Origin: a virus
Direction: 5' to 3' (one strand)
Length of the DNA stretch: 34,639 bases
IMG/VR virus record: IMGVR_UViG_3300028840_004348
The notes under the pieces were generated by a model that made no database searches, was not told the origin of the DNA, and saw only the letters and a list, made by a program, of their open reading frames with translations. Positions 1,984 to 28,237 of this stretch are shown piece after piece. How positions within the stretch are numbered: the stretch's first letter is position 1; each line of letters begins with the position of its first letter. Both the position numbers and the translations under genes were made by a program.

Positions 1984-4100
1984 CTGCTACCTCCCATATT
2001 CACACATAGACCCTCTCTCAATATACTAAAAGCCCACGGGTGTCAAGTTCGAAGTTCAGGGCCGACCTCAACTTCATCTTCCCGGCAACTTCGTCTCTCA
2101 AACGACTTCGTCTTTCAACGACTTCGTCTCTCAAACGACTTCGTCTCTCAGGGCCAAGATGGGACCCGATGCTTTTTGTCGAACCCTCTCCAACCAGTTT
2201 CCACTTGCCAGAATGCTGGTGGGTACATCCGAGGAGTTGGTGACTTCAGTTCGAGTTGGCCAGACTCGGTTCGGATCGGCAACATCGTTCAACATGAGAA
2301 CCTTGTCCAACCTTGGCCGAGGTTGCCGAAGTTCTCAAGTTGATGAAGTTGACTTCGTCACATCGGATGAACGTCGGCAATGATTGGCCAGGATGGGACC
2401 CAATTCTCCAGCTGGAGAAGTCGGCCAACTTCGTCTCCCAGAGCCAAGATGGGACCCGTACAAGTTCGGAAGATGGGACCCAATCGAAGTTCGGGAACTT
2501 GGTCGATATGGGACCCAAGAAAGCATAGAAGAAGCCTTCTTCGGGGGTTGGGGAAGTCGAAAAGGATCGTTCGAAGTTTTTGAGATGATAGGGGTTGCCA
2601 GGATTGTCCAATGATTATGTGGAGTTGGACGGTATTGGTAGGATTGGAATCCGATATATTATCTGGGGATGGGACCCAAATCTATGTGATCCAAAGCCCG
2701 GGATCGCGATCCGATAATCAGCTAGATCGACCCCCGGGGTCCAATAATCCCCAAGATCCGCCGAAATCAGCATAATCTTCGGCAAACTTAGGAAGATTAT
2801 CCAACTTCCAGCAAACTTCAGCCCAACTTCAGGACCAGCCGCCTTGTCGGATTGTCAACACTCAGGAAGATTCACCCTTGTCAGATTATCAATAGGCAAC
2901 ACGATGGATTATCGGATTGACTTGCCCAACACCTGGCCAACTTCAGCCCAGGTTGGCGAGATGAATGCGCCCATCTTGGCCAGGATTGGCCCGAACTCGG
3001 GAACCTCTACAACCTATCCCTGGAGCCCAAGCTCCTTAAGCACGGACAGGACTTCACGGAGCTGCTTCGAGGAGCCGCCCAGACCAGCTCTGCGCCCCGC
3101 TACCAGCCATCGCCAGCGCCTGCCGGCCTTCCAGATGTACACCATATCGAACCTCCTCGTCGAGCCTATCAATCCTTCCCAAGGCGGGTCAACTTTTCGG
3201 CTCTCCGTTGGTCGGAGACCACATCTTCCGAACTTCGACCAAGTTCGGGAAAGGTTGGTGAAGATGGATCACGATCCGTCTGACGAGAGTGTATCGATTC
3301 TTGATGGAATTGCGCAATCGTTAACGGTCGGGCAAGTTGGGTGTTGACGAATCGTCAACTCTATTTCGAATATCAATGCGGTTCGAGGATGGATTTTCGG
3401 ATTAGTTCAATGTTTGCGAGAGGTTGATGAAGTTCGGCTGGGGAAGTTGCCGAAGATTGTTCAAGGATCGCGGATTTTGGATCGGATTGGGACGGATCGC
3501 GATCCGCGCGATCCGCTGGTCTGGTCGATTCTCACCTATATACTGAGAGCCTACTTGACGGGTACTTGATGGCCGCTTGCTTGCCAATCCCGACCCAACC
3601 TCACCAATCTCCGTCCACTTCGTTCCAATCTCGGCAACTTGCTCCCTCTATCCAATCCTTGGCCACTCCGTTCCGAACTTGGCAACTTCGAACCAACCTC
3701 ATCTATCTGTCCAACTCCTTGGATGTACCCAGGCGAGTTTCTGGTGGGGGAAGTATCTACCGACTTCATCAAGCTTGCCGACTTACTCCAGCCGGCCAAT
3801 CCTTGTCCACTTCGTTCGAGTGAAGCAACTTGGTCAACTTCATCCCTTCGAGCTAACTTCATCTATCTGGCCAACTCGAACTGAAGTCACCAACTCCTCG
3901 GATATACCCAGGCGAGTTTGGCTGATGAGCTATGAGGAGAGGGGATGTACTTACCATGGAGAGAATCTGCCGCGCCATCCTCCTTTTCAACCACCTGATG
4001 TATCGGGTGCAATCTTAGCTTGGACCGACGAAGTCGTTAGAACTTCGAAGTTGAAGTTCAGAAGTTCGGGACTTCGAGGTTCAGCAAGTTCGGGCCGTCA
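1984..4100. repeat. 2.1-kb ORF-poor, repeat-dense locus (candidate replication origin, iteron field or genome-terminus region)
   Basis: There is no convincing CDS on either strand; the track ORFs here are low complexity. A 4x tandem 17-nt repeat lies at 2087-2150. Six copies of GATGGGACCC occur at 2158, 2392, 2448, 2472, 2517 and 2668. Perfect palindromes GGATCGCGATCC (2701-2712) and CGGATCGCGATCCG (3493-3506) are present. DnaA-box-like TTATCCAAC / GATTATC motifs occur at 2797-2915. Many AACTTCG / CCAACTTC short repeats run throughout. A roughly 50-nt direct repeat occurs at about 3697-3745 and 3848-3920. Confidence 0.6.
2087..2150. repeat. tandem array, 4 x roughly 17 nt ((A)ACGACTTCGTCTCTCA), abutting a GATGGGACCC box
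   Basis: Read directly: caacttcgtctctca / aacgacttcgtctttca / acgacttcgtctctcaa / acgacttcgtctctca, followed by gggccaagatgggaccc. Confidence 0.6.
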
Positions 4101-10528: not shown

Positions 10529-10615
10529 TGGGAGATGGTGGAATCGAACCACTTGCCTCGTGGAGGAGCGGGTTTACAGCCCACCGCAGGCCCAGCCTGC
10601 CTTAGAGCACCTCCC
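10529..10615 (-). tRNA. tRNA-Tyr (anticodon GTA), class II with long variable arm
   Basis: Folded by eye. The acceptor stem is GGGAGGT/ATCTCCC and the anticodon loop is CUGUAAA. The T-loop is TTCGATT. The gene is 87 nt with discriminator A and no encoded CCA. Confidence 0.6.
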
Positions 10616-10617
10616 GT

Positions 10618-10706
10618 TGCACGGGGTGGGATTCGAACCCACACTGTCTCTTAAGCGTTGCCCTGGGGCCTGAACCCAGCGCCTCTACCAGTTGGGCTAC
10701 CCGTGC
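10618..10706 (-). tRNA. tRNA-Leu (anticodon CAG), class II
   Basis: The acceptor stem is GCACGGG/CCCGTGC and the D-stem is 3 bp with an 11-nt D-loop (CAACTGGTAGA). The anticodon loop is TTCAGGC. The long variable arm is present. The gene lies 2 nt (AC) upstream of the tRNA-Tyr 5' end. Confidence 0.55.
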
Positions 10707-10741
10707 GCTATCTAGATGCTAATTAGCGTCTAATTAGCATC

Positions 10742-10817
10742 TGGTGGACAGGGACGGAGTCGAACCGCCTACACCCGGAACTTCAATCCGGTGCTCTACC
10801 AGTTGAGCTACCTGTCC
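10742..10817 (-). tRNA. tRNA-Phe (anticodon GAA)
   Basis: A 76-nt cloverleaf with acceptor GGACAGG/CCTGTCC and D-stem GCTC/GAGC. The anticodon loop is TTGAAGT and the T-loop is TTCGACT. CCA is encoded. Coordinates were anchored on track ORF 10791. Confidence 0.65.
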
Positions 10818-10819
10818 GT

Positions 10820-10892
10820 TGCGCGTGGAGGGATTCGAACCCCAACATCCGGACCCTCAGTCCGGCGACTCTGCCAGTTGGCCTACACGCGC
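10820..10892 (-). tRNA. tRNA with anticodon GAG (Leu-decoding) but class-I length (73 nt, short variable loop)
   Basis: The acceptor stem is GCGCGTG/CACGCGC with discriminator A73, and the D-arm is Leu-type (3-bp stem, 11-nt loop CAACTGGCAGA). The anticodon stem is CCGGA/TCCGG and the loop is CTGAGGG. The T-loop is TTCGAAT. The isotype needs tRNAscan-SE confirmation. Confidence 0.45.
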
Positions 10893-10959
10893 GTTGTGTT
10901 TCACCTGCTGTCAGCAACCTCCGTTGTCGCTCACTTTCGAACGAATCTGATCAACCAAG

Positions 10960-11033
10960 TGCGACCGCCGGGAGTCGAACCCGGAACATCCTGCTTTTGA
11001 AACAGGCGACTCTGCCAGTTGGCCTACGGTCGC
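10960..11033 (-). tRNA. tRNA with anticodon CAA (Leu-decoding), class-I length (74 nt)
   Basis: The acceptor stem is GCGACCG/CGGTCGC with discriminator A, and the D-arm is identical to the GAG tRNA. The anticodon loop is TTCAAAA and the T-arm is CCGGG-TTCGACT-CCCGG. Coordinates were anchored on track ORF 10997. Confidence 0.45.
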
Positions 11034-11037
11034 TCGA

Positions 11038-11110
11038 TGCGTCCGCCAGGATTCGAACCTGGAACCCCCGGTGTTTAAAGCCGGTGCCTCTGCCGTTGAG
11101 CCACGGACGC
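11038..11110 (-). tRNA. tRNA with anticodon TAA (Leu-decoding), class-I length (73 nt)
   Basis: The acceptor stem is GCGTCCG/CGGACGC with discriminator A, and the D-arm is similar to the other two short Leu-type genes. The anticodon loop is TTTAAAC, with a C-A mismatch closing the stem. The T-arm is CCAGG-TTCGAAT-CCTGG. Confidence 0.4.
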
Positions 11111-11114
11111 TCGG

Positions 11115-11188
11115 CAGGAGAGCCAGGATTCGAACCTGGGTTTGAGGACTTGGAAACCTCCGTGCTGGACCGCTCGCACTACTCTCCC
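11115..11188 (-). tRNA. tRNA-Trp (anticodon CCA)
   Basis: The acceptor stem is GGGAGAG/CTCTCCT with discriminator G and the D-stem is GTGC/GCAC. The anticodon loop is TTCCAAG, with an imperfect anticodon stem. The T-arm is CCAGG-TTCGAAT-CCTGG. Confidence 0.5.
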
Positions 11189-11190
11189 GT

Positions 11191-11263
11191 GGTGACCGAC
11201 GAGACTTGAACTCGCAACGACCGGGGCCACATCCCGGCGCTCTACCAGTTGAGCTACGGCCAC
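11191..11263 (-). tRNA. tRNA-His (anticodon GTG), no encoded G(-1)
   Basis: The acceptor stem is GTGGCCG/CGGTCAC with discriminator C, and the anticodon loop is ATGTGGC. The T-loop is TTCAAGT. The nucleotide 5' of G1 is T, so G-1 is not templated. Confidence 0.55.
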
Positions 11264-11265
11264 AG

Positions 11266-11350
11266 CGGAGGACGCAGGGCTCGAACCTGCACCGGGATGA
11301 ACCGGACGACGCCTTAGCAGGGCGCTGCGATACCATTCTGCCAGTCCTCC
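11266..11350 (-). tRNA. tRNA-Ser (anticodon GCT), class II
   Basis: The acceptor stem is GGAGGAC/GTCCTCC with discriminator G, and the anticodon loop is CTGCTAA. The long variable arm is present. The T-arm is GCAGG-TTCGAGC-CCTGC. Confidence 0.55.
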
Positions 11351-11415
11351 ACATTAAAATTTTCCTCCATTTTCTTTAATAGTTCGGATCCTAATTAAAA
11401 CTTTCTTCAATACTG

Positions 11416-11488
11416 AGTCCCGAGCCGGAATCGAACCGGCGTCTGAGGATTTGCAGTCCCCCGCTTGAACCTGCTCAGCTACCGGGAC
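11416..11488 (-). tRNA. tRNA-Cys (anticodon GCA)
   Basis: The acceptor stem is GTCCCGG/TCGGGAC with discriminator U, which is typical for Cys. The anticodon loop is CTGCAAA and the T-arm is GCCGG-TTCGATT-CCGGC. Coordinates were anchored on track ORF 11465. Confidence 0.55.
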
Positions 11489-11491
11489 AAG

Positions 11492-11563
11492 CAGGGCCGG
11501 GCGGAGTCGAACCGCCGTACTCGGGTCCAAAGCCCGATGCTCTACACGTTGAGCTACGACCCC
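11492..11563 (-). tRNA. tRNA-Gln (anticodon TTG)
   Basis: The acceptor stem is GGGGTCG/CGGCCCT, with two G-U pairs, and the discriminator is G. The anticodon loop is CTTTGGA and the T-arm is GGCGG-TTCGACT-CCGCC. Confidence 0.5.
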
Positions 11564-11565
11564 GG

Positions 11566-11655
11566 AGGAGGGCGAGGGATTCGAACCCCCACGCCGGGAC
11601 AACGCCGACGACCGCGATTTTCGAGACCGCTCCAATACCGTTCTGGCAGCCCTCC
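11566..11655 (-). tRNA. tRNA-Ser (anticodon CGA), class II
   Basis: The acceptor stem is GGAGGGC/GCCCTCC. The anticodon arm, GCGGT-CTCGAAA-ATCGC, matches the canonical Ser(CGA) arm. The long variable arm is present. The discriminator reads U, which is atypical for Ser. Confidence 0.5.
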
Positions 11656-11700
11656 GATTGGTAAATCTTTCCATCACTTAACACTTCTTTACCGTTCGAG

Positions 11701-11787
11701 CGGAAGCGCCTGGACTCGAACCAGGACCACGGGAAACCGTGCTCTCGGCCTTCCAAGCCGGGGCCTTACCGTTGAGGCTACGCTTCC
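11701..11787 (-). tRNA. tRNA-Ser (anticodon GGA), class II
   Basis: The acceptor stem is GGAAGCG/CGCTTCC with discriminator G, and the anticodon loop is TTGGAAG. The long variable arm is present. The T-arm is CCTGG-TTCGAGT-CCAGG. Confidence 0.55.
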
Positions 11788-11800
11788 GAACTGGAAACGA

Positions 11801-11911
11801 TTAGCTTAGATAAAGCAGTGATTGATGCTGGATAAACGAGGAGAGACACCAGAGGCGGGGAGCCTTGGCGGTGGGGGCGATCATCTTTCCGATTCGCTTT
11901 CGACGTTTCAT
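11801..11911 (-). CDS. possible 36-aa basic micro-ORF inside the tRNA array (speculative)
   Basis: ATG at 11911 is preceded by GGAGAGACCG. It encodes MKRRKRIGKMIAPTAKAPRLWCLSSFIQHQSLLYLS within the 138-nt spacer between tRNA-Pro and tRNA-Ser(GGA). It is absent from the ORF track because it is too short. Confidence 0.15.
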   Translation of the reverse strand: MKRRKRIGKMIAPTAKAPRLWCLSSFIQHQSLLYLS

Positions 11912-11925
11912 CGGTCTCTCCTCGG

Positions 11926-11999
11926 TCCGGGCGAGAGGATTTGAACCTCCAACCTCTAGATCCCGAATCTAGCGTGCTACCAGATTGCACTACACCCGG
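11926..11999 (-). tRNA. tRNA-Pro (anticodon CGG)
   Basis: The acceptor stem has the C1-G72 pair characteristic of bacterial Pro, CCGGGTG/CGCCCGG, with discriminator A. The D-stem is GTGC/GCAC and the anticodon arm is CTAGA-TTCGGGA-TCTAG. The T-loop is TTCAAAT. Confidence 0.55.
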
Positions 12000-12133: not shown

Positions 12134-12624
12134 GCAGAAAGTTCAGAGTCGAGCTTTTCCTTCAAGCCGGTGCCGCTCTCCGTGGTCATCCCCCACTGGA
12201 TGTCCTCATAGGGAATCTCGTTCTCGCGCATCAGCTCCTGGATCAACGCGCGGCCTACTCCCTTTCCCTGCGCCTCGGGCTTGACCTCGATCATCTTGAG
12301 ATGCGTCTCGCCGCGCCAGAGAGTGTAGTCCACGTAGCCGAGCCCTTCGCCGGTCTTTGCGTCCTTGGCGACGATCCAGGCGTCCCACTGGTCGCCGAGG
12401 GCATCACCCCCGTGCTCGAAGGCGAGGGCGTCGCCCTGCTGGGCGTTCCGACCCGTTACGAAAGGAAGCAGCCGAAGAAGAAGCATCCACTGAGAGAACG
12501 CGTTCTCCTCTTCGAAGCGTCTTTTCTCCCGCTCGATGGCCCGCTCAGGTTCATCCTCTTCGATCTCGGGCACCTCGTCACCGATGCGACGAAGGGCTTC
12601 CGTGTTCAGTCCGTGGAGCCGCAT
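12130..12624 (-). CDS. GNAT-family N-acetyltransferase
   Basis: Track ORF 12130..12756 trimmed to ATG 12624, which forms a TGATG overlap with the upstream stop and has a GGGAGGAC SD. It carries the acetyl-CoA motif IEVKPEAQGKGVGRALI (the Q/R-x-x-G-x-G/A pattern). The N-terminus begins MRLHGLN. Confidence 0.6.
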   Translation of the reverse strand: MRLHGLNTEALRRIGDEVPEIEEDEPERAIEREKRRFEEENAFSQWMLLLRLLPFVTGRNAQQGDALAFEHGGDALGDQWDAWIVAKDAKTGEGLGYVDYTLWRGETHLKMIEVKPEAQGKGVGRALIQELMRENEIPYEDIQWGMTTESGTGLKEKLDSELSA

Positions 12625-14683: not shown

Positions 14684-14874
14684 CAGCCGTTCTCCTTCTT
14701 CCGGATGATCTTGACGGGCGTCCACTGCGAACCGAAGTTCGAGCCGAGTCCGCTCTCCCACTGGACGCCGATCACGTCGCCGTGGGGGTAACGGCTCCAG
14801 GCACGCGGATCAACCACGATGCCCAAGACCCCCGTGTCAGTACGGATGACTTCTTCTCCTTTCTGGAACTCCAT
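14683..14874 (-). CDS. small hypothetical protein (63 aa)
   Basis: Track ORF 14683..15060 trimmed to ATG 14874, which forms a TGATG overlap with the 14874..15080 gene. The N-terminal extension in the track is Arg/Gly-rich and overlaps that gene in another frame. Confidence 0.35.
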   Translation of the reverse strand: MEFQKGEEVIRTDTGVLGIVVDPRAWSRYPHGDVIGVQWESGLGSNFGSQWTPVKIIRKKENG

Positions 14875-15080
14875 CAGTCGAGCCCCAACCGGTGCGCGAC
14901 CGCCTCGCACTCGTGACAAGTTATACCGTCCTTCAGCTGGCCGGCACGGTTGCGCTTGACACCTGCCAGCGTCGGACGACTGGGGTCCGCCGCCGATTCG
15001 CAGACGTGCTCCCAAAGGAGCGCGCTGAGAGGCTTCGCCCACTTGGGACGATTCTTCCACTTCGGAGCCTTCTTTGTCAT
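14874..15080 (-). CDS. small basic Cys/His protein
   Basis: Track ORF with an AGGAGGGCAATGAC SD. A conserved CTATATAG-type promoter motif lies upstream. Confidence 0.5.
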   Translation of the reverse strand: MTKKAPKWKNRPKWAKPLSALLWEHVCESAADPSRPTLAGVKRNRAGQLKDGITCHECEAVAHRLGLD

Positions 15081-15162
15081 GTCATTGCCCTCCTGTTGGT
15101 GTCATTCTTGATACTCTCTCTATATAGCACAGAGTCTACCCGATAAGCAAGCAAATTCTAGA

Positions 15163-15193
15163 TAAAAAAGGCCGATGCTCAAAAGCACCGGCC
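15163..15193 (-). terminator. rho-independent terminator (minus strand)
   Basis: A hairpin GGCCG(A)TGC-tcaaaa-GCA(C)CGGCC at 15170-15193 is followed on the minus strand by a U6 tract, which is the plus-strand A6 at 15164-15169. It sits immediately upstream of the promoter motif for the 14874..15080 gene. Confidence 0.5.
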
Positions 15194-15194
15194 T

Positions 15195-15500
15195 GGTTAG
15201 ATCTTCACATGTAGATCGCGGGCGCAACCCGCATGCCACCTCTAAGTATCCGGTACTTGAGTTAAGTACCGGATCGTGGCGCGGGCGTGTTGGTGCGCCA
15301 CAAAAACCCCTTTTTTCGACTCTGATCGGTGCCGGGAGCTAGCGGCTGTCAACCGTGAGTATTCCTGATTGACTCGAAGCGCCGGGGGAGGAGGCGGCGA
15401 TGTGATCTTCGAGACCAACCAAGCAAGGACACCGATCATCTTCTTTGGGTCTCCCTTTGACACCCTCTCTGTATAGCAGATAGTCCACCACGAAGTCAAG
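15195..15500 (-). other. promoter-to-terminator bounded unit of about 300 nt with strong hairpins: candidate structured sRNA, or a 65-aa ORF (15242..15439)
   Basis: It is bounded by TTGACT-18-TATACA (about 15465-15499) and the terminator at 15163-15193. It contains a perfect 11-bp-stem hairpin at 15248-15274 and a 7-bp GC hairpin at 15276-15301, followed by AAAAACCCCTTTTTT. The track ORF (MIGVLAWLVSKITSPPPPP...) has a weak SD and spans the palindromes. Confidence 0.3.
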
Positions 15501-15523
15501 CTAATCCGAAAAAAGAGAAGCTG

Positions 15524-15823
15524 CTACAGAGTCTCATCAACGACGTTGCCCAAGGTATCCAGGGCAATGTCCTTGATGAGTTCCTGAAGCTCTCGGAAAC
15601 GAGGATGAGAAGTGAACCGTTCCTCGGCTCGGGCCAAGGTAATGCCTCCTCTCGGAAGCTTGTTCCAGTCGACGTGGCTGAAGACCGAGGCAGCCTGCGC
15701 GGCAGCTTGCGGAAGCCCCCATTCAAGATCTGTCAAGACATCGTCCCAGTCGACCTCGAATCCTTCGCGCTCGATGCGCTCCTTCTCTTCCTGATAGCCG
15801 CCACCGAACGGATCACTCGACAT
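15524..15823 (-). CDS. hypothetical acidic protein
   Basis: Track ORF with a GGAGGAG SD. Confidence 0.5.
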   Translation of the reverse strand: MSSDPFGGGYQEEKERIEREGFEVDWDDVLTDLEWGLPQAAAQAASVFSHVDWNKLPRGGITLARAEERFTSHPRFRELQELIKDIALDTLGNVVDETL

Positions 15824-16367
15824 CGGGCTCCTCCATCACTTCATGGGGCTCTTCGTCAATGCGATGCATCTCGAACTCGACGCCGGCCTCGTTGCAGACT
15901 TCTTCGAAACCTTCGATCACCTTGTCAGTGTCCTCCCAGATCTCCACCCGTGTCGGCTGATGTTCCTCGATGAGTTGACGGAGCATCTCGGGCTTCCAGA
16001 CTTCTGAGCGAGAGCCCTCCGGGGCGAGCCGGATCTCATCGAAGTCGAGATCTTGTTGATCGAGCAGCTCGTTGATCCGATCTTCGAACTTCTCGAAGCG
16101 ACCAGTCACGAGCACGAACGCCGCGTCAGCTGCTTGCTCCGACTCGTGAGCGTCTCGAAGAACCTTTTGCACCCACCAGTCGGTCGTGGGCTCCTCGGGC
16201 ACCTGAGGCTCCTCCAGGCTCTTCTCGTTGGACCACCATCCTCGCTCGGGCCACCCTTTCGGTTTCTCGGGACTACGGAACAGAGTGCCGTCGAAGTCGT
16301 ACAGATGAAGCACCTTTGCTCCCGCGAGGCGGCGGAGTCCTTGCTTGGTAATGCCGAGAACGATCAT
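15813..16367 (-). CDS. HAD-superfamily phosphatase (T4 Pnkp-phosphatase-like / nucleotidase-like)
   Basis: Track ORF. It carries HAD motif I, LHLYDFDGTLF (the DxDGT signature), and a motif II-like FVLVTGR. It has no SD. Its ATG lies 7 nt after a TAGAAT hexamer, so it may be leaderless. Confidence 0.55.
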   Translation of the reverse strand: MIVLGITKQGLRRLAGAKVLHLYDFDGTLFRSPEKPKGWPERGWWSNEKSLEEPQVPEEPTTDWWVQKVLRDAHESEQAADAAFVLVTGRFEKFEDRINELLDQQDLDFDEIRLAPEGSRSEVWKPEMLRQLIEEHQPTRVEIWEDTDKVIEGFEEVCNEAGVEFEMHRIDEEPHEVMEEPDVE

Positions 16368-21976: not shown

Positions 21977-22645
21977 TCAGATGCCGAAAGCATCCAGCTG
22001 GTCCTTCTTGCTGTTGTCGATCCAGTAGAACCGAGTGAAGCCTTTCCCGTCGTACTGCCGTCGCAGCGCGCGGTCGAGAACTTCTCCGACCCAGTAGAAC
22101 AGACAGTAGTCGGTGTAATCGGTACCCTTCCCGTCGAAGGAGAACCTCCGAACGAATTCGCCGATCTCGATGGGTGGACGCTCTCGGAACAGGCGCATCC
22201 GTTTGATCGAGCCGGCGAAACCCACGCGCAGCAGGAAGACTGCCACCCCGGTCGGATGCAGAATGCTCAAGGACTTCCGAACGAACTCCTCGGCCAGAGA
22301 GTACGGCGGGTTCGTAGCGATGATGTCCCATCCTCCGTGCTCACGGACTTCAGAAGGAGTGTACTGCTCCCAGGGGGCCGTCAAGAAGTCCGTCCGATAT
22401 CGGCGCTGCGGTTCCTCGGTGACTACCGACCAGTCGTCGATGATGTCGATACCTACCATCTCGCCGTCGTAGCCGATGTCGGCAGCCGACTTGATAAAGG
22501 GGTAGGTGAGGCCGCATCCGGGTTCGAGGATGTGGAGCTTGTTCTCGTAGGGATGGAAGTCAGTGGCCCGCAAGAAGGCCCACTGCGCGTAGCGATACGG
22601 GGTCGGATAGAAGTCCCGTCCGCCCCCAGATGGATTTCTAGGCAT
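21977..22645 (-). CDS. DNA methyltransferase (N6-adenine / N4-cytosine class)
   Basis: Track ORF 21977..22780 trimmed to ATG 22645, which has an AGGAGGAAACG SD and a CCCGTATATT promoter upstream. Motifs present are DFYPTP, the SAM-binding ILEPGCG, and the catalytic IIATNPPY. Confidence 0.65.
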   Translation of the reverse strand: MPRNPSGGGRDFYPTPYRYAQWAFLRATDFHPYENKLHILEPGCGLTYPFIKSAADIGYDGEMVGIDIIDDWSVVTEEPQRRYRTDFLTAPWEQYTPSEVREHGGWDIIATNPPYSLAEEFVRKSLSILHPTGVAVFLLRVGFAGSIKRMRLFRERPPIEIGEFVRRFSFDGKGTDYTDYCLFYWVGEVLDRALRRQYDGKGFTRFYWIDNSKKDQLDAFGI

Positions 22646-22793
22646 CGTTTCCTCCTGCACGCAATATACGGGATTGAAGATCGTTGACCCTGAAGAGAAG
22701 CTCACCGGACGGAGGGCAATCCGCATCCCAACTTCGGGTGACAAGTCCGAAGTTGGTGGTGAACCTCTCTTCGGGATCAACGATCCCGAGAGA

Positions 22794-23417
22794 TCAGAAC
22801 GTACACTCCCCGTTCTCGGGGTCGCAGGTCACGCAGCCGCCCATGCACTGGACGGCGTACTCGTAGAAGCTCGTACAGACCGATCCCGGGTACATCTCCG
22901 GGCAATTGATGTACGTCTCCCAGGTGCCGGTCCAGGAGGCTGTGCAGCTGTCACTGGTGCCGTCGCAGTACTTGACCGCATCCATCTTCTGGAAGAGGTC
23001 CCCGCACTCCTCGTCGCACTGGTAGAAGGCCTCTTCCTCGCAGATGACCTCGTCCTCGGGTTCGAAGAAGTAGCACCCGTCGCAGCAGGGACCGGCCATG
23101 CATTCGCATCCGGTGTCGGTGTCAATATCGCTGTCCGTGCCGGTATCTGTATCGGTATAAGTATCCGTATCTGTAGAGGAATCAGTATCCGTATCAGCGT
23201 CCGTGTCGGTGTCGAGATCAGTCCCCGTATCCGTGGAAGTGTCCGTTTCTACATCGGAATCGGTGTCGGTGTCAGTATCTGTATCGGTGTCGGTATCCGT
23301 GTCGGAGTCGAGATCGGTCCCCGCGTCGTCATCCCATCCGCCGTCTGCCGGAGCCTCAATGCTGGTGTCATAGCAGCCGGCCAACATCAGAGCCATGCTC
23401 ATGATCCAGGTTTTCAT
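22794..23417 (-). CDS. lipoprotein with (TD)n low-complexity linker and C-terminal Cys-rich domain
   Basis: Track ORF with an AAGGAGGG SD. It has a lipobox signal peptide, MKTWIMSMALMLAGC. About 70 residues of DTDTDT/DSDTD repeats follow. The C-terminal roughly 100 aa contain about 18 Cys. Confidence 0.55.
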   Translation of the reverse strand: MKTWIMSMALMLAGCYDTSIEAPADGGWDDDAGTDLDSDTDTDTDTDTDTDTDSDVETDTSTDTGTDLDTDTDADTDTDSSTDTDTYTDTDTGTDSDIDTDTGCECMAGPCCDGCYFFEPEDEVICEEEAFYQCDEECGDLFQKMDAVKYCDGTSDSCTASWTGTWETYINCPEMYPGSVCTSFYEYAVQCMGGCVTCDPENGECTF

Positions 23418-27400: not shown

Positions 27401-28237
27401 CTACTTTCCGAGACCTTTCCGAATCTGGACATGCTCCGAGTCGCGCTCACCGTCCTGGTAATGCTTGACTCCGGTATGCTTCGCACGAGGACGTGGCTTC
27501 TTCTCCTCAGGATCTTCGAATCCCTTCGACCGGAGCCATGCCTTGGCGATGCCTTCGTATCGAACAGCCAGCGCGGTGATCTGCTCACCTTGCTCGGACG
27601 CCTCCTCCTGCTCCTTCAGCTCCTTGAGACGCTTGGCGAAACCAAACACAAGTCCTTCACGGTACTCGCGCTTGGCCGCGTTCCGATACGACTCGAAGGT
27701 TTTGTAGTAGTAGCGTCCCAGACTGCTCATCAGCTGTCGCATCAGGCCGCGTTGCCGGTCTGGATTCTCCCACTCGGCGCGGTCGACATGATATTTCCGG
27801 GACAGCTCTCTGATCTGGTTGAAGACCGACTGGAAGGCGTAAGCTGCCATCGAGGCGTTGAGTTTCACCCCGTAGAACATCAGTCGCCCACCAGTCCAGT
27901 AGGTGGGCTCGATGTAGGTCACCGAAGCGTCCATATAGTCGGCCACCACGATAGCCAAGGACAAGGCCCACTTAGCAGTCTGCTTGGTCTTCATGTCGAT
28001 GACCACCCCATCCGCCTCCGGCCCCTGAGCGGCTCCAGGAGCGCCCACGACCTCGACGTCCTCCATCTCCAGGCCGTACTGGAGCATCAGCCTCCGCGCC
28101 AGCTCCAGGGCAGCCTGGGCTTCGTGGTCGACGTCCTCTGGCTTCTCCGCGTTCCGGACAGCGTTCTCGGCCCGGTTGAAGAGCAGCTGGACGCGCTCGA
28201 TGACCTTCTTCAGCTTGTCTGGATCAACTTCGGGCAT
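27401..28237 (-). CDS. hypothetical protein with N-terminal DUF2786-like motif
   Basis: Track ORF 27401..28294 trimmed to ATG 28237. The N-terminus reads VIERVQLLFNRAENAVRNAEKPEDVDHEAQAALELARRLMLQYGLE. That matches the LL-x-A-E...EAEAA...A-x-xLMxKyGL signature of DUF2786. This match is from memory of the family. Confidence 0.45.
   Translation of the reverse strand: MPEVDPDKLKKVIERVQLLFNRAENAVRNAEKPEDVDHEAQAALELARRLMLQYGLEMEDVEVVGAPGAAQGPEADGVVIDMKTKQTAKWALSLAIVVADYMDASVTYIEPTYWTGGRLMFYGVKLNASMAAYAFQSVFNQIRELSRKYHVDRAEWENPDRQRGLMRQLMSSLGRYYYKTFESYRNAAKREYREGLVFGFAKRLKELKEQEEASEQGEQITALAVRYEGIAKAWLRSKGFEDPEEKKPRPRAKHTGVKHYQDGERDSEHVQIRKGLGK

Follow-up and report, generated by a model that had tools for sequence, protein, structure and literature searches.

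The sequence analysed here, a window of 34,639 nucleotides (34.6 kb) held as IMG/VR virus record IMGVR_UViG_3300028840_004348, comes from an uncultured marine jumbo phage of ~188 kb (the longest contigs carrying its proteins measure 188,449 and 188,555 nt) with a G+C content of ~58%. All recognisable genes of the window lie on the minus strand, and the unit described below is therefore read on that strand; its features are given in the direction of reading, from higher to lower coordinates. In this direction a gene for a 99-aa protein ends at 15524 and is followed by a promoter (P1), a hairpin-bearing stretch, an intrinsic terminator, a second promoter (P2) and a gene for a 68-aa protein (15080..14874), which has a Shine-Dalgarno sequence and an ATG start at 15080. 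The gap that holds the unit measures 443 nt, compared with at most 88 nt at the other 17 gene junctions in the surrounding 6.5 kb, all sizes being based on the genes called in identical public contigs. An initial annotation, made from the sequence alone, had singled out this region as a structured small RNA (sRNA) bounded by a promoter and a terminator, and the features that it named are all present and all lie on the minus strand. A HAD_SAK_1 phosphatase gene (15813-16367, minus strand) lies two genes upstream of the unit and is of the RNA-repair “Swiss army knife” type, with the PHROG name polynucleotide kinase; it adjoins the 99-aa gene in all relatives.

Relatives of the phage are few. None was found at the DNA level among 50,697 deposited phages (GenBank phages, searched in near and distant modes), and scans of IMG/VR and JGI metagenomes with the flanking proteins, followed by alignment, returned no close relatives, the phage itself not being recovered either. 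A large protein collection held only three or four related lineages, one of them from Gulf of Mexico metagenomes, and a further protein search with the HAD gene as query added none. Contigs from other samples that carry the unit are 100% identical over 4.2–6.5 kb and the unit was found only in such copies, which, being identical, hold no comparative information. One JGI contig (188,555 nt) encodes a variant of the 99-aa protein, P0005, that is identical up to codon 49 and frameshifted thereafter; its altered frame matches a 61-aa ORF at 15537..15722, and the frameshift is probably an assembly or sequencing indel in that contig.

P1 (15499..15470, minus strand) consists of TTGACT (15499..15494), an 18-nt spacer and TATACA (15475..15470), exactly the promoter proposed in the initial annotation, and its predicted transcription start lies near 15463. 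Against the sigma-70 consensus the −35 element matches at five of six positions and the −10 element at four of six, the T at position 6 being missing. A strict sigma-70 scan (near-consensus hexamers, 16–18 nt spacing, a −10 with A at position 2 and T at position 6) returned neither P1 nor P2 because both −10 hexamers end in A. P2 (15150..15121, minus strand; TTGCTT-18-TATATA) is placed directly 3′ of the terminator and upstream of the 68-aa gene, which it probably drives, and is 78% similar to P1 over about 50 nt. A 25-nt promoter motif, GGTRGACTNTNTGCTATAYAGAGAG, occurs twice where 0.00 occurrences are expected; relaxed patterns detected no further coding-strand copies of the P1/P2 motif in the 34.6-kb window, and a scan of IMG/VR with the promoter-leader motif gave a single match, unrelated and within coding sequence.

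In three related lineages, L014, L015-18 and L019, a promoter of the P1 family comes directly after the 99-aa-gene homologue; in L015, P2 is also kept, upstream of the gene for the 67-aa homologue of the 68-aa protein. Conserved across the relatives are the TTG...TATAYA elements, parts of the spacer and the leader hairpin, and this conservation of motif and spacer at orthologous sites is good evidence for taking P1 as a real promoter, which may be read by a phage-modified or phage-encoded polymerase with phage-specific recognition. A promoter-like site of the opposite orientation (TTGACA-16-GATAGT, 15457-15484, plus strand, 10 of 12 matches) overlaps the P1 leader; it points away from the unit, and an RNA made from it would be antisense to the end of the 99-aa gene.

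The terminator (15194..15163, minus strand; −19.7 kcal/mol) has an 11-pair stem (15194..15169) with seven G-C pairs, a UUUG loop and a U6 tract, that is, the G+C-rich stem, short loop and adjoining U tract of an intrinsic (Rho-independent) terminator. The hairpin-U6 terminator of the initial annotation can thus be located precisely, just outside the start coordinate given for the unit. One of the stem pairs is G·U, which leaves a C/A mismatch on the other strand and makes the terminator minus-strand-specific. The only other terminator-like site on the coding strand is a weak one of six pairs (12501..12483); no comparable coding-strand terminator, with at least seven pairs, exists elsewhere in the 34.6-kb window, and the earlier suggestion that this is the sole independently terminated unit of the window holds for this terminator scan. 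Since P1 is conserved at the orthologous site in three lineages and the terminator is strong and strand-specific, a transcription unit is supported.

Terminator and P2 together (from 15194 to 15121) form a composite terminator-promoter junction, for which the PeSL elements of T4-like phages offer a parallel. PeSLs combine a stem-loop terminator with an early promoter, are dispersed in many copies in the hyperplastic regions of T4-like genomes, where they mark the end points of indels, and allow cassettes to be exchanged by recombination between similar promoters (PMC2839356, PMC4122927). Shared with them are the stem-loop terminator followed directly by a promoter and the similar promoter copies, P1 and P2, on either side of a segment that differs between related phages; in contrast to PeSLs, only two copies exist in 34.6 kb of the ~188-kb genome, there is no sequence similarity, and the phage is not demonstrably T4-like. 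By analogy, recombination may have taken place at the P1 and P2 sites. The P1 of the window is closer to the P2-type promoter and leader than to the P1 of the relatives, in keeping with an exchange of cassettes in which similar promoters recombined. An imperfect inverted repeat of 29 nt (15523-15590, 79% complementary, 10-nt loop) at the 3′ end of the 99-aa gene is followed on the minus strand by CTTCTCTTTTTTCGG just before P1, giving a second, weaker stem-loop-plus-promoter junction.

Comparison of the slot among the related phages revealed a conserved promoter with changing cargo. The unit itself is absent from relatives at 55–77% protein identity. In L019, whose 99-aa homologue is 77% identical, P1 is followed by an unrelated gene; in L014 (62% identical) by a different structured element of ~345 nt and then a DnaJ-like gene; and in L015-18 (55% identical) by the DnaJ-like gene, P2 and the 67-aa gene. 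The position of P1 is kept and the cargo differs, so the unit is a lineage-specific cassette. The DnaJ-like gene is absent from the window, and the idea that the unit is a degraded form of it was ruled out by tblastn and tblastx; beyond the promoters, tblastx and blastn found no similarity between the unit and the relatives, and it is thus not a gene remnant.

The element in L014 (3383-3727, plus strand of that contig) is closed by a helix of ~27 bp and bears a UUCG-capped hairpin, with a minimum free energy (MFE) of −150.5 kcal/mol and z = −2.9. It is without a terminator, no ORF was called in it, and searches gave neither an Rfam match at E ≤ 10 nor a tRNA or tmRNA. Homology to the unit was rejected, as was an identification as RNase P or tmRNA; the resemblance to conserved RNase P strings that is seen by eye found no support from Rfam or ARAGORN.

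A slot of this kind invites the explanation that nothing is encoded in it: the DnaJ-like gene would have been lost in a promoter-mediated exchange, with ~270 nt of sequence without function remaining downstream of P1; the terminator alone would matter, as a stop for P1 transcripts and upstream read-through before P2, and the hairpins would be incidental. None of the relatives has the unit and it is without homologues; the slot, with a similar promoter at each border, is clearly a swap site, and composite terminator-promoter elements are known to flank variable cargo in T4-like phages (PMC2839356, PMC4122927), all of which agrees with such a scar and insulator. Against it, a simple promoter-to-promoter deletion would leave no extra sequence, the former gene leaves no detectable trace, a non-coding gap of this size is exceptional in so tightly packed a genome, and two properties of the RNA described below—a body that folds far beyond its shuffles even when the terminator is removed, and a first domain with a well-defined single fold—also speak against it. 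We regard the scar as rather unlikely but as a serious rival, with more weight than any of the other alternatives discussed below.

The only ORF on offer as cargo is the one of 65 codons named in the initial annotation (MIGVLAWLVSKITSPPPPP..., 15439..15242, minus strand), which is present and starts with ATG but is judged not to be a protein gene, a conclusion that is well supported. A codon model for which 21 kb of the phage's long ORFs served as training set gives it −0.10 per codon, as against 0.60 ± 0.32 for phage genes and −0.68 ± 0.29 for off-frames, which is below the 5th percentile of in-frame gene windows; the neighbouring genes of 63–99 aa score 0.35–0.70. Its GC3 is 0.60 versus 0.76 in phage genes. 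The SD-like GGGAG lies 11 nt from the AUG and inside the 5′ hairpin, and the U and G of the AUG itself are paired in an 11-bp helix of the predicted fold. No Pfam or PHROG family matches the ORF, and a search of 1.84 billion protein representatives (filter-only HMMER) gave two marginal multi-stretch matches (E-values 1.6e-4 and 6.5e-4), which we put down to low-complexity, proline-rich sequence. In the identical public contigs L012 and L013 the ORF was passed over by the gene caller.

These results bear on the possibility that the unit is a small-protein moron, in which the ORF would be translated into a proline-rich basic peptide. Morons are autonomous promoter-gene-terminator insertions in lambdoid and HK97-like phages, and the promoter-plus-terminator layout of the classical, protein-coding ones is that of the unit; an ATG-initiated frame that covers most of it, with a GGGAG upstream, adds to the appeal of the idea. 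The codon score and GC3, both unlike those of genes and the former unlike that of small neighbours, the SD spacing and paired start codon, the PPPPP run that the peptide would carry and the failure of family searches, homology searches and gene calling all speak against translation, and we judge such a protein to be improbable. ORFs with a stretch of transmembrane length are likewise missing from the transcript, which thus encodes no membrane-toxin-like protein. A type I toxin-antitoxin arrangement of the hok/sok kind finds no match here, there being no hydrophobic ORF and the plus-strand promoter-like site pointing away, and a Pfam scan of the flanking genes detected no reverse transcriptase (RT) domain, as would be expected beside the msr/msd of a retron.

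With the ORF set aside, the RNA itself was examined. The full predicted transcript of ~300 nt folds far beyond its shuffles (−127.7 kcal/mol, z = −4.0, 0 of 100 shuffles as good). The excess does not stem from the terminator alone: the body without it gives z = −3.8 (0 of 200 shuffles as good), and the 3′ part of the body alone (domain II, also without the terminator) z = −3.7. The complementary plus-strand RNA is ~9 kcal/mol less stable, with z = −2.9. In a GC-corrected sliding scan of 687 windows of 300 nt the unit is among the 15 most over-folded without being first, its best-placed window (15439..15140) ranking eighth with z about −2.4.

The same scan places a different region, 22540-22940, ahead of the unit. 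It contains a 148-nt intergenic region (22646-22793, minus strand) between an ORF ending at 22794 and an ATG at 22645, which folds into one extended hairpin of ~112 nt (−70 kcal/mol); with z = −5.7 for the surrounding 381 nt, this is the most over-folded stretch of the window.

From its 5′ end, the transcript opens with a leader hairpin (GGGUGUCAAAGGGAGACCC, 15465..15447, minus strand), whose loop contains the sole SD-like GGGAG and which is homologous to the P2-type leader GGGUGUCAGAGGUGACACC of L015. Domain I (15438..15323, minus strand) is a branched hairpin of 116 nt closed by the 11-bp helix (UGAUCGGUGUC/GGCACCGAUCA) that takes in the U and G of the ORF's start codon; it has −46.9 kcal/mol and z = −2.8, its MFE structure is close to the centroid and makes up 9.5% of the ensemble. 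At its tip, on a CGCCG/CGGCG stem, sits a C-rich apical loop of 10 nt (CCUCCUCCCC, 15394..15385, minus strand) that contains the anti-Shine-Dalgarno core CCUCC and is unpaired in both the MFE and the centroid structure. An A6-G4-U5 linker (15316..15302, minus strand) follows, which read on the plus strand is the A5-C4-T6 element of the initial annotation (15302-15316).

Domain II (15301..15218, minus strand) has two mutually exclusive predicted folds. The first consists of three hairpins, 15301..15276, 15274..15248 and 15232..15218, of which the first two correspond to stems that had already been pointed out: one of seven GC-rich pairs (GTGGCGC/GCGCCAC) around a 12-nt loop at 15276-15301 and a perfect one of 11 bp with a 5-nt loop at 15248-15274. 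The second is a single extended hairpin of ~80 nt with the 11-bp hairpin at its tip. A small hairpin, GAUCU-ACAUGUGA-AGAUC (15217..15200, minus strand), completes the predicted folds. The alternative folds of domain II could reflect a switch, or simply repeated GC-rich words.

A further possibility is a leader that acts in cis to make termination conditional, comparable to lambda pR′-tR′ or HK022 put, where the RNA, or a factor loaded at P1, would decide on read-through into the downstream genes. The order of promoter, structured RNA and strong terminator upstream of an operon would suit this, as would the two folds, and premature conditional termination yields many phage ncRNA candidates (PMC10914365). 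The downstream gene, however, has its own conserved promoter right after the terminator, the terminator stem takes no part in the alternative folds, and no known riboswitch or leader family matches, so that we give this explanation very little probability.

Perfect inverted repeats of 10 bp or more with arms at most 40 nt apart number just four in the 34.6-kb window, the 11-bp hairpin being one of them, and this raises the further question of a site acting at the level of DNA, where the repeat and the surrounding imperfect palindrome of ~80 bp would bind a dimeric protein as an operator or as a replication or recombination site. Its arms are perfectly complementary without G·U pairs, the plus strand also folds above chance, and imperfect direct repeats of 23 nt (GUGGC...CGCCCGCG) flank the hairpin. 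Yet the window holds neither iterons nor repeated copies of it elsewhere, no adjacent gene for DNA binding, replication or recombination was identified, and the repeat lies within a promoter-terminator-bounded transcript whose other helices use strand-specific pairing; a DNA site is accordingly the least probable of the explanations considered.

The searches for an RNA family gave no relative of the unit. Rfam 15 contains no family matching it, whether at the gathering threshold or at E ≤ 10, and the only passes of the gathering threshold in the whole window are tRNAs; the best match within 15000-15700 is P26, with 19 bits against a cutoff of 36 and positioned on the terminator hairpin, and the weak matches are terminator look-alikes. 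A covariance model of domain I found no match in the relatives or elsewhere in the window. Exact and degenerate scans for the 11-bp hairpin found no match in viral contigs, and in genome and metagenome contigs (Ruminococcus, Oscillospiraceae, Dyadobacter, Flammeovirga and others) the hairpins recovered were all unrelated, the majority with a terminator-like T run behind them. No diverged homologue was thus detected across the searchable collections. For antisense targets, no match within the window is better than shuffles; the C-rich loop has a single complement over 10 nt (27599-27608), which is no more than chance would give, is placed in coding-looking sequence and was rejected as a target.

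Taken together, we favour the reading of the unit as a moron-like, autonomous cassette that carries a stand-alone non-coding RNA of ~300 nt as its cargo, and would put it at about an even chance. The initial annotation's choice of an sRNA over a protein gene thus stands in two of its parts, the absence of a protein gene and the existence of a transcription unit, and a non-coding transcription unit is supported; the functional, stable sRNA is a candidate only. Counted against the RNA are the lack of any homologue, and hence of covariation or a sign of purifying selection, together with the relatives that do without the unit, the empty Rfam, covariance-model and antisense searches, a place below the first in the folding scan and the −10 element without T at position 6.

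According to this reading of the unit as an RNA cassette, P1, as a member of a small conserved phage promoter family, would start transcription near 15463, and the nascent RNA would fold into the 5′ hairpin, the 116-nt branched hairpin with its exposed CCUCC-containing loop and the two-fold second domain. The strong intrinsic terminator would end transcription near 15163 and release a stand-alone RNA of ~300 nt, while P2, a separate promoter copy right behind the terminator, would serve the next gene. The cassette would occupy a swap site between two similar promoters, at which relatives hold the DnaJ-like gene or other cargo, and the RNA would presumably accumulate and act in trans. As to its action, our most concrete guess is that the C-rich loop might pair with ribosome-binding sites rich in purines, on mRNAs of the host or the phage; alternatively, the RNA might titrate an RNA-binding protein.

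The kind of element is known—from phage morons, from phage sRNA candidates and from cassettes swapped between promoters and terminators—and the sequence itself is an orphan. With morons the unit shares its own promoter and intrinsic terminator, its insertion between two genes and its absence at the same site from otherwise syntenic relatives; it differs from the classical ones, with their beneficial protein gene, in that its only ORF fails every coding test and the cargo appears to be RNA. Short structured phage RNAs that run from a phage promoter to a terminator are exemplified by the 6S RNA of lambda pR′-tR′ and by StxS. In Pseudomonas phages, short structured terminated transcripts have been documented as ncRNA candidates, among them the 5′UTR-derived RNAs of phiKZ and ncRNA1/2 of PAK_P3 (PMC10914365). 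The unit resembles these in being short and structured, with a phage promoter, a terminator and no credible ORF, and has no sequence or Rfam relationship to them; unlike those candidates, which are leaders or 3′ ends of adjacent mRNAs, it is split from the next gene by a dedicated promoter.

A seed function for CCUCCUCCCC, the one part of the RNA to hint at how it might act, may be conceived on the model of sRNAs of Gram-positive bacteria that pair with Shine-Dalgarno regions through C-rich loops, such as staphylococcal RsaE, the hairpins of RNAIII and the actinobacterial 6C RNA. The exposed C-rich apical loop with its CCUCC core on a stable stem is common to all; the unit differs in having a single C-rich loop, no Rfam match at E ≤ 10 and no target found in the window.

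The occurrence of two unrelated structured RNAs, the ~300-nt terminated unit and the 345-nt RNA of L014, in two related phages led us to consider that this marine jumbo-phage clade uses the position after the conserved promoter as a swap site for accessory cassettes of structured RNA (“RNA morons”), a generalisation that we hold to be unlikely. If it is true, the RNA cassettes could be host-directed regulators or anti-defence decoys, and the RNA counterpart of the protein accessory genes. Should the RNA of the unit prove real and have a function, the few stand-alone sRNAs known from lytic or jumbo phages would gain an unclassified family, and promoter-flanked swap sites would be seen to take RNA as well as protein-gene cargo; with defined ends and a length of ~300 nt, the unit is a clean candidate from an uncultured phage.

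Several other features of the window came to light. An array of 14 tRNA genes was identified by ARAGORN at 10529-11999 (minus strand), two of which, for Tyr (10529-10612) and Ser-CGA (11564-11655), score below the Rfam gathering threshold for tRNAs; between two tRNA genes of the array lies a hairpin of 13 perfect base pairs and a 3-nt loop (AGATGCTAATTAG/CTAATTAGCATCT, 10714-10742). Two repeat blocks with a 6/12-nt period (TCGGTATCGGTG-like, 23104-23317) are found inside a 207-aa ORF (22794..23417) and presumably encode a repetitive stretch of protein, acidic or Thr/Asp-rich. A low-GC, apparently non-coding stretch at 1999-2150 (plus strand) begins with a plus-strand promoter-like site (TTCACA-17-TATACT, 1999-2027), which is followed by a GGGTGTCAAG word resembling the P1 leader and by a tandem repeat of 3.8 copies of the 17-nt unit ACTTCGTCTCTCAAACG (2088-2150, plus strand); the stretch could represent iterons or a repeat RNA.
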